Positions 9,628-53,412 of a stretch of DNA of 64,000 nucleotides are shown here, piece after piece. A program made the translations under genes and the position numbers. Location of the stretch: positions 2,878-66,877 of the forward strand of contig JBEKEP010000001.1 in NCBI GenBank assembly GCA_050013775.1, read 5' to 3'. Under the pieces are notes generated by a model, which was not told where the DNA came from, did not search any database, and saw only the letters and a program-made list of their open reading frames with translations. Source of the DNA: Terracidiphilus sp. Lineage in GTDB: Bacteria; Acidobacteriota; Terriglobia; Terriglobales; Acidobacteriaceae. The first letter of the stretch is position 1. Each line of letters begins with the position of its first letter.

Positions 9628-10548
9628 CTACAGTTGCCCGACTTGCAGGACGATCTTGCCGGGCTTGTGGGGTGCGCCCGCAAGCATTTCTTGCGCCTGG
9701 CGCGCCTCCGTAAGCGGCAGGCTTGAGCCCACACGCGCTTTGATTCTCCCCGCGTCAAACAATGTTGTGAGCGTCTGCAGGCGCGCGGTGGTCACCTCAG
9801 CGTAGAAGAAAACGGCCCCTGCTGGCAGCGGCTGCGTCGAAACCAGGGTGACAAGTTTGCCCCCGGGCTTCAACGCAGCGACGCAGCGCTGAAACGTGCT
9901 GCCCCCGACCGTGTCGAGGATGGCATCCACCTGCGGAAGGTTCTGCTCGAATCCGGACTTGCTCGAGTCGATGATGGATTGCGCGCCCATTGAACGGAGC
10001 AGGCCCTCGTCGTCGAGGTGGGCGATGGCAACCACCTGGATTCCGGCGTCTACGGCCATTTGTACGGCGTAGGCCCCGACGTTCCCGGCGGCTCCGACGA
10101 CCATTACCGTTTGTCCGCGCGTCGCCTCTGCATACTGGAAGAGCATTTGCCAGGCGGCCACGGCAATGACGGGAGCCGATGCTGCCTCTAGGTGATTCAA
10201 TGACTGTGGTTTGGGTGCGACCATCCCGGCTGCGGCCAAGGCGAACTCGGCCTGGGCGCCACAGAACTGTGGATTGGTGACGCCATAAACTTCGTCGGAC
10301 GGCGCGAAGTCCGTAACACCGGGGCCGACTTTCTCGACGACACCGGATAAGTCCGAACCGAGGGTGAGCGGAGGTCGTGGGCTGACCTTGCTCTTGCCCT
10401 CACGGATGAGCGCGTCCCATGGAGCGACGCCTGCGGCCATCACGCGCACCAGAACTTCGCCGGGCCCCGGCGACGGCACCGGTACATCCTCGACCACCAC
10501 GACGTCGGGCGGCCCGAAGCTATGAATTCTGGCTGCTTTCACGGCCAA
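9628..10548 (-). CDS. NADPH:quinone oxidoreductase / zinc-type alcohol dehydrogenase (MDR) family protein
   Basis: 306 aa with a GroES-like N-terminus (GPGEVLVRVMAAGVAPWD) and a Rossmann motif (VMVVGAAGNVGAYAVQMA). Confidence 0.8.
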   Translation of the reverse strand: MAVKAARIHSFGPPDVVVVEDVPVPSPGPGEVLVRVMAAGVAPWDALIREGKSKVSPRPPLTLGSDLSGVVEKVGPGVTDFAPSDEVYGVTNPQFCGAQAEFALAAAGMVAPKPQSLNHLEAASAPVIAVAAWQMLFQYAEATRGQTVMVVGAAGNVGAYAVQMAVDAGIQVVAIAHLDDEGLLRSMGAQSIIDSSKSGFEQNLPQVDAILDTVGGSTFQRCVAALKPGGKLVTLVSTQPLPAGAVFFYAEVTTARLQTLTTLFDAGRIKARVGSSLPLTEARQAQEMLAGAPHKPGKIVLQVGQL

Positions 10549-10682
10549 TTCCCCCTCACCTTGGGGATGCTCGAGGATCCGTTAGTGACTCAGGCCTTCA
10601 TCGATCGCGGGTTCGCTGCCAATGGAGAAAGCCGACTCATCCTAAGACGTTTCCTTTAGGCGTTGCATGTCCAGCAAAGAGT

Positions 10683-11588
10683 TCAAGCCACCAGCAAAAC
10701 CTTCCCGATGCCACCCTTTTCCGCGGCGGCTTGACCTTCGGCCGCCTGGCTCAGTGGGATTCTGGGGCCGAGCGGGATCACCAGTTTGCCATCGCGGACG
10801 GCCTCGGCCATGAACTCCAGAGTTTTCCTGTCGGCGGACGAGAACACCTTCACCACCTTTACGGCTGGGAATTTTTCGGCATTTCGGGGCGGCCCGACAA
10901 CCGATGCATACACGCCTCCCGGCTTCACCTTGGCGATCAAGGTTTCGGCGGTCTTGCCATTCGCCGTGTCGGCAACGGCATCGACCGGAGGAAGACTCGC
11001 AATCGCGCTGTCGTCGTCGGTTGCCACCAACTGATCCGCGCCGGCGCTCTTCGCGTCTCCCATTTGCTTCGCCAGGACTCCCGCAATCACGGTCGCGCCC
11101 AGCTGCTTCGCAGTGAACACCGCCGAACGCCCGACATTTCCCGCTGCGCCCGCTACCAGCACAGTCTGGCCCGCCTTGATTCCGATAGCAGCAGCTAGTT
11201 GATTGCCGGTCGTTGTTGCCAGGGGCAGCGCCGCCGCATCAATCAAATCGAGTCCCTTGGGAACCTTCGCCAGGATCGCCGCTTTCACCACGCAAAGTTC
11301 GGCATAAGTGTTGTCCGTCATGGCGAACACTTGGTCGCCGACAGAAAAGCCTTCCACTCCCGGCCCCAGCTTGGCCACAGTTCCCGAAACGTCCACTCCC
11401 ATCAGTCCCGGAAAGTTGATGGGATAGAAGGACTGTGTAAACCCCGCACGCCGCTTGTAATCAATGGGATTCACGCTCGCGGCAGCCACCCGCACCAGCA
11501 CTTCACCCGGGCCCGCCACCGGATCGGGGTAATCCTCCCACTTGAGCACTTCAGGACCGCCATATTGATGGACAACAATGGCTTTCAT
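10683..11588 (-). CDS. NADPH:quinone oxidoreductase (MDR) family protein, tandem paralog
   Basis: 301 aa with GPGEVLVRVAAASVNPID and VLVAGAAGNVGRSAVFTAKQLGA. Confidence 0.8.
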   Translation of the reverse strand: MKAIVVHQYGGPEVLKWEDYPDPVAGPGEVLVRVAAASVNPIDYKRRAGFTQSFYPINFPGLMGVDVSGTVAKLGPGVEGFSVGDQVFAMTDNTYAELCVVKAAILAKVPKGLDLIDAAALPLATTTGNQLAAAIGIKAGQTVLVAGAAGNVGRSAVFTAKQLGATVIAGVLAKQMGDAKSAGADQLVATDDDSAIASLPPVDAVADTANGKTAETLIAKVKPGGVYASVVGPPRNAEKFPAVKVVKVFSSADRKTLEFMAEAVRDGKLVIPLGPRIPLSQAAEGQAAAEKGGIGKVLLVA

Positions 11589-50586: not shown

Positions 50587-50662
50587 TGGTGGAGCTGAGC
50601 GGGATCGAACCGCTGGCCTCCTCGTTGCGAACGAGGCGCTCTCCCAGCTGAGCTACAGCCCC
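50587..50662 (-). tRNA. tRNA-Ala (anticodon CGC)
   Basis: The reverse complement GGGGCTGTAGCTCAGCTGGGAGAGCGCCTCGTTCGCAACGAGGAGGCCAGCGGTTCGATCCCGCTCAGCTCCACCA has the G3:U70 Ala identity pair, loop TTCGCAA and an encoded CCA. Confidence 0.9.
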
Positions 50663-51739: not shown

Positions 51740-52237
51740 CTACGATTGTGCGTCCGTGTCGGGATGCAAGAACGCCAGAAACACGATGCCGATTACAGTG
51801 AAGCTTCTGAAAGCTTCCTCCTGCCCATTCCAGGTGCTTGACTGCCACATGAGAAACCACTCACCGCCGACGGTCAGAAACGCCACGAGCCACATCAGCA
51901 ACGAGAGCGTGAGCGCAAGCACGGGCAGGAATTTGGCCGCGTTGAAGGCCGCAGCAGGCAGGCGCAAAGCGCGCAGCAGGCGGGCAATGCCCCACCAAAG
52001 CAGGACGCCCGTGATGATTTCCCAAGCAATGATGCCGATGTAAAAGACGCGATCGACGACTGGCGAAGAGATCGAACGCCACATGCCACCATTGCCCGGG
52101 AAGGTTGAATCCATCAGCAAAACATGACGAACAAACTGCGCGTTCGTGCCGAAATCGGTAAGGTTATTGAACACGACAAGGCTGTAAAACAAAGCAACGC
52201 CAGCCAGCAGCAGCAGCTTCGCAGTGCGAATCATCAT
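51740..52237 (-). CDS. DUF2165 family small integral membrane protein
   Basis: MMIRTAKLLLLAGVALFYSLVVFNNLTDFGTNAQFVRHVLLMDSTFP, with four TM segments. Confidence 0.65.
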   Translation of the reverse strand: MMIRTAKLLLLAGVALFYSLVVFNNLTDFGTNAQFVRHVLLMDSTFPGNGGMWRSISSPVVDRVFYIGIIAWEIITGVLLWWGIARLLRALRLPAAAFNAAKFLPVLALTLSLLMWLVAFLTVGGEWFLMWQSSTWNGQEEAFRSFTVIGIVFLAFLHPDTDAQS

Positions 52238-52278
52238 TTTGTGTGCGGCCTCAATCGCCCTCGAAGTGTGAACAGACC

Positions 52279-52770
52279 CTAGATCGGAGCTTCCCAGTCG
52301 TCCGTCGCGGTCTTGCCGCCATCGGACCATGTGACTTGGATGGCCTGGTAATCAAGCGTAATCTGCTCGTTGCGGCCCGCCTTGCGAATGCTCAAGATGG
52401 TGGCGTTTGTGAGCACGATCTTCTGTGCAGTCTTCGCGCCGCCCGTGGCGCCCTCAAGAGTAATCACCACTTCGCTCAACGACTCGTTTGTACTCAACGC
52501 CGTGGCGAACTTGGGCGACGCAGCATCGACCTCTCTGACGATGGTGATGGTAGAGTGCATCCGTCTGCCGGTGGACATCCCGGTCGGGGTATCGCGGACG
52601 ACGCTGATGAGCTTGATGCTATCGGACATCGCATCGCCCTTGATGGGTCCTTGCTTGGCGCCTTTCACCGTCATGTACGCATTGACCGCGGCCATGGCCG
52701 GCACTGCGGACAGCAGCGCAGAGAGCGCGCCGCAAAGCACAAACAACCTTCCTGCATGAACGAATCGCAT
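52279..52770 (-). CDS. Hcp (T6SS tube protein)-like protein with predicted N-terminal Sec signal peptide
   Basis: An AAGGAGG RBS sits 7 nt before ATG 52768-52770. The N-terminus is MRFVHAGRLFVLCGALSALLSAVPAMA, then VNAYMTVKGAKQGPIKGD..., TGRRMHSTITIVREVDAASPKF and ITLDYQAIQVTWSDGGKTATDDWEAPI. Confidence 0.7.
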   Translation of the reverse strand: MRFVHAGRLFVLCGALSALLSAVPAMAAVNAYMTVKGAKQGPIKGDAMSDSIKLISVVRDTPTGMSTGRRMHSTITIVREVDAASPKFATALSTNESLSEVVITLEGATGGAKTAQKIVLTNATILSIRKAGRNEQITLDYQAIQVTWSDGGKTATDDWEAPI

Positions 52771-53001
52771 CGCAAACCTCCTTGAGCTTTCAATCGGTGG
52801 GAAGCCGTGAAGCCGGGTGCGGTATTTCGCAGTGCTTTCCCGGCGGCGACAGTATATCGCCCGTTGCCGCTGCTGCAATCTTTTTCTGCATTCGTTTGAA
52901 AGCCAAAGTACCGGGCGCACCTGGCAGAGCCGGGACAGGGGATCGGCGTTGGAACGCAGGTCCGAAAGTGAGAGTCGAGGCCGTTCAGCCAGGACCCGCG
53001 G

Positions 53002-53352
53002 CTACGCCTTGAGGGCCGCCAGGCTATCGGCGGCCGTGGCATCGATGGGTAATAGCGTGTTGGTCCTGGTCAGTTCCAGCAAGGACACGATCCGCGGAGC
53101 CACGCCACAAAGGCGCAATGCGCCGCCTTTGGCTGCGAGCGAGCCGTAGGCATACACCAGCATGCCGAGTCCCGCGCTGTCGATGAAACCAACGTCGGTC
53201 AGATCGAAAACGACTTTATGGACGCCGTCGTTGATGATTGACCGCACTTGCGATTCCACCATGCTGAGAGAGGAGCCGAGCGTGATTTGCCCCGTAAAGA
53301 CAACCACGGCACAGCCGTCAGGATGCTTGTCGATCGATGCACTCACAGGCAT
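53002..53352 (-). CDS. STAS-domain anti-sigma-factor antagonist
   Basis: 116 aa with VVFDLTDVGFIDSAGLGMLV (the conserved phosphorylatable Ser context). Confidence 0.8.
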   Translation of the reverse strand: MPVSASIDKHPDGCAVVVFTGQITLGSSLSMVESQVRSIINDGVHKVVFDLTDVGFIDSAGLGMLVYAYGSLAAKGGALRLCGVAPRIVSLLELTRTNTLLPIDATAADSLAALKA

Positions 53353-53365
53353 GGCGAGATTTTAC

Positions 53366-53412
53366 ATGGAAAAGCCGTCAGGGCAGAGGAACATTTTCTG
53401 CCCTGACGGCTT
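53366..53412 (-). terminator. rho-independent terminator after rho
   Basis: Perfect 15-bp stem AAGCCGTCAGGGCAG / CTGCCCTGACGGCTT with an 11-nt loop. On the minus strand it is followed by TTTTCC. Confidence 0.8.

Follow-up and report, generated by a model that had tools for sequence, protein, structure and literature searches.

How does a gene for Hcp come to carry what looks like a Sec signal peptide and to stand among housekeeping genes? [quoted passage not shown] The gene addressed here lies on the minus strand of a 64-kb stretch of DNA from a peat-soil Terracidiphilus; we call this stretch the window. It is flanked by a STAS-domain gene and rho upstream and by a convergent DUF5996 gene downstream; more distant neighbours are a tRNA-Ala gene, hrcA and dnaJ, genes for a DAHP synthase and a comM-like product, and yidC. 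The tRNA is tRNA-Ala(CGC) (50587-50662, minus strand), located between a UbiA/HAD gene and the DUF5996 gene; because of its presence, the overlapping ORFs listed at these positions are spurious.

The Hcp ORF runs on the minus strand from the ATG at 52770 to the stop codon at 52281-52279 and encodes 163 aa, recovered exactly as quoted in a preliminary description of this DNA. The Hcp-like identity proposed there is borne out by family profiles as well as by the fold. Pfam PF05638 (T6SS_HCP) matches the 163-aa product with 60.9 bits (cut-off 23.5) over residues 32-148, covering profile positions 1-129, and TIGR03344 (TssD) matches with 71.2 bits (cut-off 58.9) over residues 28-161, covering profile positions 2-166. 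Residue 28 of the product corresponds to position 2 of the TIGR03344 profile, so the predicted mature protein starts where an ordinary Hcp starts. The mature Hcp/TssD domain (52282-52689, minus strand; 136 aa) retrieves Hcp3 of P. aeruginosa (3he1, E 7e-9) when its sequence alone is searched against the PDB, and the hallmark Hcp motifs KQG..KG, TGRRxH, ASP, and DDW are kept.

A first structure prediction based on a shallow alignment gave a pLDDT of 66.7, and the AF2 model of the mature domain built with 109 homologues reaches a pLDDT of 80.6 and a pTM of 0.75. In Foldseek, this model matches the Hcp structures 8z7k (TM 0.80), 3he1 (TM 0.80), and 4hkh (TM 0.79), all with a probability of 1.00. 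Hcp structures alone occupy the top of the PDB ranking, and viral and phage tail-tube models reach a TM of only ~0.5. A PDB match entitled "Fimbrial protein" (7fcf) was dropped as a lead, as this entry is itself a T6SS Hcp. By sequence and fold, the ORF product is thus a bona fide Hcp (TssD). Its mature domain is ~25 aa shorter than that of leaderless relatives and has trimmed loops, shorter also than those of solved Hcps, which may alter ring stacking or ring formation.

Codons 1-27 (52690-52770, minus strand) encode a Sec-type signal peptide that is conserved in 33 Acidobacteriaceae loci. The window sequence with its predicted cut (slash) reads MRFVHAGRLFVLCGALSALLSAVPAMA/AV and comprises the n-region MRFVHAGR, the h-region LFVLCGALSALLSAV, and the c-region PAMA, with a predicted signal peptidase I (SPase I) site after A27 (AMA/AV). 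These assignments rest on rule-based checks and conservation, i.e., on tripartite architecture and small residues at -3 and -1; in the rule-based check, the window protein shows all features of a tripartite Sec/SPase I leader. A lipobox of the form [LVI][ASTVI][GAS]C is absent from the protein, in which Cys13 follows V-L and is replaced by Ser in many homologues. Likewise, a Tat twin-arginine motif is lacking in the window protein, which has the single Arg8, and just 8/120 family members have RR among their first 15 residues.

Conservation argues that the leader, described at the outset as apparent, did not arise by chance. The consensus of the close family reads MRIVHxGRLFVLCGVVSALLxAVPAMA/AVDAYMTV; A25, A27, and A28 are invariant in an alignment of 24 sequences, and the AxA motif is present in 112/117 family members. 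The ribosome binding site AAGGAGG (52783-52777) is separated from the ATG by 6 nt (TTTGCG). The preliminary description had the consensus right and gave the spacing as 7 nt, a trivial difference. In 33/33 loci with differing flanks, both AGGAGG before the ATG and the n-h-c architecture are kept.

ORF over-extension is frequent among gene callers, and Met33-TVKG resembles the start of an Hcp. Translation could accordingly begin at Met33 (ATG 52674) and yield an ordinary leaderless Hcp, the upstream "signal peptide" being untranslated. We give this reading next to no probability. As had been noted before, Met33 has no purine-rich site upstream when the sequence is read, in contrast to the consensus AGGAGG 6 nt before the ATG at 52770 in all 33 loci. 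Moreover, Met33 is replaced by I in L012, L020, L023, L025, and L027 as well as in the database protein P0103, by L in L032 and L034, and by H in the database protein P0076, so an internal start is excluded for these homologues. The Hcp profile alignment begins already at residue 28, upstream of Met33. Within the leader-coding region, third codon positions vary most while the amino acids are conserved, and the same arrangement of leader and Hcp domain recurs in more than 100 distant clusters.

The h-region is long (~15-17 uncharged residues) and very hydrophobic, as expected if the N-terminal segment were an uncleaved signal anchor that tethers the Hcp domain to the inner membrane, facing the periplasm. 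The class-wide pattern argues against such an anchor, which we consider unlikely: Ala is near-invariant at -3 and -1, -2 is variable, and Pro stands at -4. This corresponds to the classic SPase I pattern of the von Heijne -3,-1 rule. Additionally, a cut after A27 would recreate the native N-terminal strand of Hcp exactly. The conserved leader hence looks cleavable, and from rules and conservation we strongly infer export and cleavage.

The leader is a feature of a much larger group of proteins. The close family comprises 288 matches, nearly all of 163-166 aa, from Acidobacteriaceae or Terracidiphilus MAGs of peat and soil, and a full-library HMMER search yields 1,690 relatives. A signal peptide-like N-terminus stands directly before the Hcp N-terminal strand in 104 of the 150 nearest cluster representatives at 50% identity. 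Presequences of the 154 leader-bearing relatives have a median length of 27 aa and contain an uncharged run with a median of 17 residues; K or R occurs in the n-region of 151 of them, and Ala is found at -3 in 99 and at -1 in 113, with -2 variable. Side by side, the N-termini read MALNAYLKLKG... in a leaderless and ...AEA/ALNAYLKLKG... in a leader-bearing form, and a further leader-bearing example reads ...APLEAEA/ALNAYLKLKGQKQGEIKGSVTQKGRENSIMVIAV. In some leader-bearing forms, the mature N-terminus is nearly identical to that of canonical Hcps.

In a rough neighbor-joining tree, leader-bearing and leaderless proteins fall into blocks, with at least 10 parsimony changes over the tree, in a biased sample in which some "leaderless" proteins are possibly truncated gene calls. 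The class is found in at least Acidobacteriota (Candidatus Angelobacter) and Bacteroidota (a Bacteroidetes MAG). The preliminary description knew of no such system, and full-text literature searches likewise yielded no description of a signal-peptide, Sec, or periplasmic Hcp, an absence that is no proof of novelty. Leader-bearing Hcps form a large, apparently undescribed class.

Several relatives show other architectures. Tandem-Hcp giants include P0153 (1230 aa) with a hydrophobic leader at its N-terminus and seven domains, P0169 (2164 aa) with six domains and Big_13 domains, P0264 (881 aa) with six domains, and P0158, which has five in 646 aa and whose gene call may be partial; they may form single-chain pseudo-hexameric rings. 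Further extracytoplasmic architectures are a lipoprotein-Hcp (P0256) and a fusion of DUF7151, collagen, and Hcp (P0230). Two groups combine a leader, an extra N-terminal stretch of ~70-90 aa, and an Hcp domain (P0138/P0170/P0233/P0248/P0252/P0269 and P0255/P0257/P0263). In one Acidobacteriaceae MAG (L032, ~10001-11100), two family ORFs of 162 and 200 aa by ORF call lie in tandem, which suggests a local duplication.

A functional tube protein of a T6SS has no signal peptide, is made and polymerised in the cytoplasm as hexameric rings stacked within the TssB/C sheath, and is encoded with T6SS core genes (TssA-M, ClpV, VgrG) or depends on them. Here, the conserved 27-aa n-h-c leader precedes the domain, and core genes are missing from the window and from 49 related loci. 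In the 64-kb window, 30 further large ORFs were examined, and not one belongs to a T6SS Pfam family. When 12 authentic core proteins of a T6SS, taken from a control locus, served as tblastn queries, no match to TssA/B/C/E/F/G/L/M, TagF, ClpV, or VgrG was obtained in the window and the 49 related loci (0.89 Mb), while Hcp itself matched 48 loci in the same search. The initial observation that no T6SS genes lie nearby therefore extends to the entire window, and close relatives do not place the gene beside a T6SS either. The leaderless control P0308, in contrast, is embedded in a full cluster (TssK-L-M-TagF-TssA-B-C-Hcp-E-F-G-ClpV-VgrG-PAAR), and all seven sampled contexts of leader-bearing proteins from other lineages (7/7) are orphan with unrelated genes around them. 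Within the Acidobacteriaceae, the gene is found in many different neighbourhoods. When all ORFs of 41 loci were clustered, each cluster stood beside it in at most 10 loci, and the shared ones include nothing that looks related to a T6SS.

Genomes with a T6SS commonly contain orphan hcp genes. The window gene could hence be a displaced gene for an ordinary tube protein serving a T6SS encoded elsewhere, with a leader that is irrelevant or that serves a second, T6SS-linked role. Indeed, a T6SS has been reported in some Acidobacteriaceae (PMC9113992). The genome of the window may also harbor one outside the analysed stretch. Nevertheless, we regard a displaced tube protein as very unlikely. The conserved Sec leader, which is under selection across more than 100 clusters, would take the protein out of the cytoplasm, where the tube is built. 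T6SS genes occur in 0/8 leader-bearing contexts and 0/49 related loci, unlike in the leaderless control, and the window gene is adjoined by none of the vgrG, PAAR, or effector genes that are usual in typical orphan hcp islands.

The gene following Hcp encodes a small DUF2165 membrane protein of 165 aa (51740-52237, minus strand; PF09933, 194.8 bits). As described initially, it begins 41 nt after the Hcp stop codon, at 52237. From this arrangement, the preliminary description had derived the idea that Hcp works with DUF2165. Such a two-gene functional system of an exported ring and a membrane partner could draw on the short distance, the common strand, the terminator-free gap, and RNA contigs that bridge the Hcp-DUF2165 junction, and in the lineage of the window both genes are probably co-transcribed. 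A survey of co-occurrence argues otherwise. DUF2165 adjoins the Hcp gene in only 5/37 loci (L001, L002, L004, L005, and L007), which are fully syntenic with the window and encode a Rho 99.8% identical to its own; in ~30 other family loci, phmmer finds no DUF2165 at E≤1, and it is absent from the seven contexts of other lineages. We found no description in the literature of DUF2165 paired with a leader-bearing Hcp. The partnership was consequently rejected, as the adjacency is confined to five closely related, near-identical syntenic genomes and is not conserved across lineages, and we hold a joint function to be extremely improbable. DUF2165 is a lineage-specific neighbour through shared ancestry, not a conserved partner.

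On the upstream side, a STAS-domain protein (53002-53352, minus strand; PF01740) is encoded outside the Hcp unit and is covered by separate RNA contigs. Among Acidobacteriaceae loci, the syntenic group is the only one in which the STAS cluster adjoins Hcp. Outside this family, a STAS gene lies just upstream of a leader-bearing Hcp in an unrelated lineage (P0290 locus, L048 4806-6463), as it does in the window (52279-53352); in the P0290 locus, an HtrA-like protease gene is located downstream on the opposite strand. This recurrence may be a coincidence or a hint of a link to a stress regulon. In a Bacteroidetes MAG (L045 10001-12093; L046 211-2303), the genes that come after a leader-bearing Hcp, on its own strand, encode a PF07484 phage-tail-collar protein and a T9SS Por_Secre_tail protein, and this trio could represent a real partnership in that lineage.

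While its neighbours change, the Hcp gene keeps its own upstream region. An alignment of 33 upstream regions with unrelated flanks delineates a conserved module of ~145 nt (52771-52915, minus strand). It consists, in this order, of the near-invariant motif GGCGATATACTGTCGCCGCCGG (52861-52840), a segment of variable length, a 5′ leader that reads CCGGCTTCACGGCTTCCCA..GATTGAAAGCTC in the window and CCGGCTTCACGGCTTCCCA..GATTGAAAGCTCAAGGAGG in the alignment across loci, and the AAGGAGG ribosome binding site. The insert between GGCGATATACTGTCGCCGCCGG and the conserved 5′ leader ranges from 14 to ~130 nt. The GGCGATATACTGTCGCCGCCGG motif occurs a single time in the window (0 expected by chance) and once per locus. 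Within it, TATACT (52856-52851) lies inside a GGCGA/TCGCC inverted repeat and is a candidate -10 box, although a scan with a simple sigma-70 consensus called no promoter in the module. The same module is present in L001-L037 just upstream of the match, so that gene and module travel together to unrelated places in the genome.

For the upstream regions of the window and of L008, Rfam returned nothing above noise. A structured RNA is likewise not supported: RNAalifold on six long-leader variants gave compensatory changes in only 2/26 pairs and an unfavourable covariation term. From its sequence, we infer that the module combines a dedicated promoter, an operator, and a 5′ leader; it may serve as the operator of a dedicated regulator, with GGCGATATACTGTCGCC as the candidate target. 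Together with this conserved module and its strong ribosome binding site, the Hcp gene makes up a self-contained unit of one gene.

Transcription of this unit is evident in four metatranscriptomes from peat and wetland, in which contigs cover the ORF including the leader-coding part and extend to 52796, 26 nt upstream. RNA depth is zero at 52820-52890 in the four runs, and the separate STAS contigs cover 52923-53375. These are low-depth assembled contigs that carry no strand information and do not allow the 5′ end, predicted near 52844, to be mapped. Peat and wetland communities express the gene.

In the five syntenic genomes (L001, L002, L004, L005, L007), the Hcp gene evolves with a dN/dS of 0.21-0.46, compared to 0.003-0.20 for its neighbours at similar dS (rho 0.003-0.02; DUF2165 and DUF5996 0.09-0.20). 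Correspondingly, identity to the window is 72-91% for Hcp and 92-98% for STAS, with Rho almost unchanged as given above. The Hcp protein is under purifying selection, yet evolves markedly faster than its neighbours. Relaxed selection, diversifying selection, or an exchange of alleles between lineages may be responsible.

Together, a bona fide Hcp domain, a conserved leader, and the lack of T6SS context across a large family lead us to a T6SS-independent, Sec-exported, and SPase I-processed Hcp protein, presumed to form rings and to act in the cell envelope, as the probable answer to the question raised by this locus. The repurposing for the envelope or the exterior that had been proposed initially is therefore also our best reading. 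The precursor would be exported across the inner membrane by virtue of its 27-residue Sec signal peptide, and signal peptidase I would cut after Ala27 to release a mature protein of 136 aa. This would start with AVNAYMTVKG..., the very N-terminus of an ordinary Hcp. By homology, Hcp-like rings would be expected, located in the periplasm or further out and not forming a cytoplasmic T6SS tube. As a leading guess, these would be binding or scaffold rings that work independently of a T6SS in the envelope or outside the cell. The functional part of this reading is weak because no conserved gene neighbour provides a clue.

The lumen of canonical Hcp rings is a binding site for effectors. An Hcp ring in the periplasm might correspondingly act as a decoy or sponge that binds incoming Hcp-dependent T6SS effectors or caps tail tubes and thereby protects the cell. 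Such a role would be in line with a dN/dS above that of all neighbours, with a single-gene unit that has its own putative promoter and is inserted at many genomic sites, and with some leader-bearing proteins whose mature N-termini all but match canonical Hcps. Even so, we rate it as rather improbable. The dN/dS of Hcp is still below 1, the neighbours are housekeeping genes without the context of a defence island, and PADLOC found no match to known defence families for Hcp, DUF2165, STAS, and DUF5996. A search against PHROGs gave a single weak match, to a protein of unknown function.

The envelope Hcp that we favor can be set against known systems. With canonical Hcp/TssD (Hcp1 1Y12 and Hcp3 3HE1 of P. 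aeruginosa, Hcp1 4HKH of EAEC), it shares the Pfam and TIGRFAM families, the β-barrel fold (TM ~0.8), the hallmark motifs, and an N-terminus equivalent to its own mature N-terminus. In contrast to these, it has a conserved Sec-type leader and a mature domain shorter by ~25 aa with trimmed loops, and its gene is an orphan that lacks T6SS, VgrG, PAAR, and effector genes in its vicinity. Its folding is predicted to take place outside the cytoplasm, which would make it unfit for a tube assembled in the cytoplasm. Orphan hcp and hcp-vgrG islands likewise hold an hcp-family gene away from the main T6SS cluster. Their Hcp, however, is leaderless, usually accompanied by vgrG, PAAR, and effector-immunity genes, and dependent on a T6SS elsewhere, whereas the window gene has a leader, lacks such companions, and lies between housekeeping genes (hrcA-dnaJ ... 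rho ... yidC). Another Hcp variant is Hcp-ET, also with a terminal extension, but there a C-terminal toxin is fired by the T6SS, while the window protein carries an N-terminal export signal and no toxin domain. Tail tube proteins of phages and eCIS (gp19-like) have a distantly related tube fold in common with the window protein; the structural similarity is much weaker (TM ~0.5), phage or eCIS genes are not found nearby, and the sequence family is clearly Hcp.

More broadly, and as a tentative idea of low probability, leader-bearing Hcps could be widespread, multi-phylum extracytoplasmic ring proteins with a T6SS-independent biology of their own, either decoys that block effectors or tubes or components of a new secreted or surface structure. 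The idea of a new structure fits the six- and seven-domain tandem Hcps and the lipoprotein-Hcp and collagen-Hcp fusions.

For genome annotation, the class described here means that hcp labels such as "type VI secretion system tube protein" inflate the number of T6SS counted in metagenomes, above all for soil Acidobacteriota. For the biology of the family, it would mean that the ring fold of Hcp has taken on a second role, located in the envelope or outside the cell. This second role is open to direct experiment because the unit is a single small gene.
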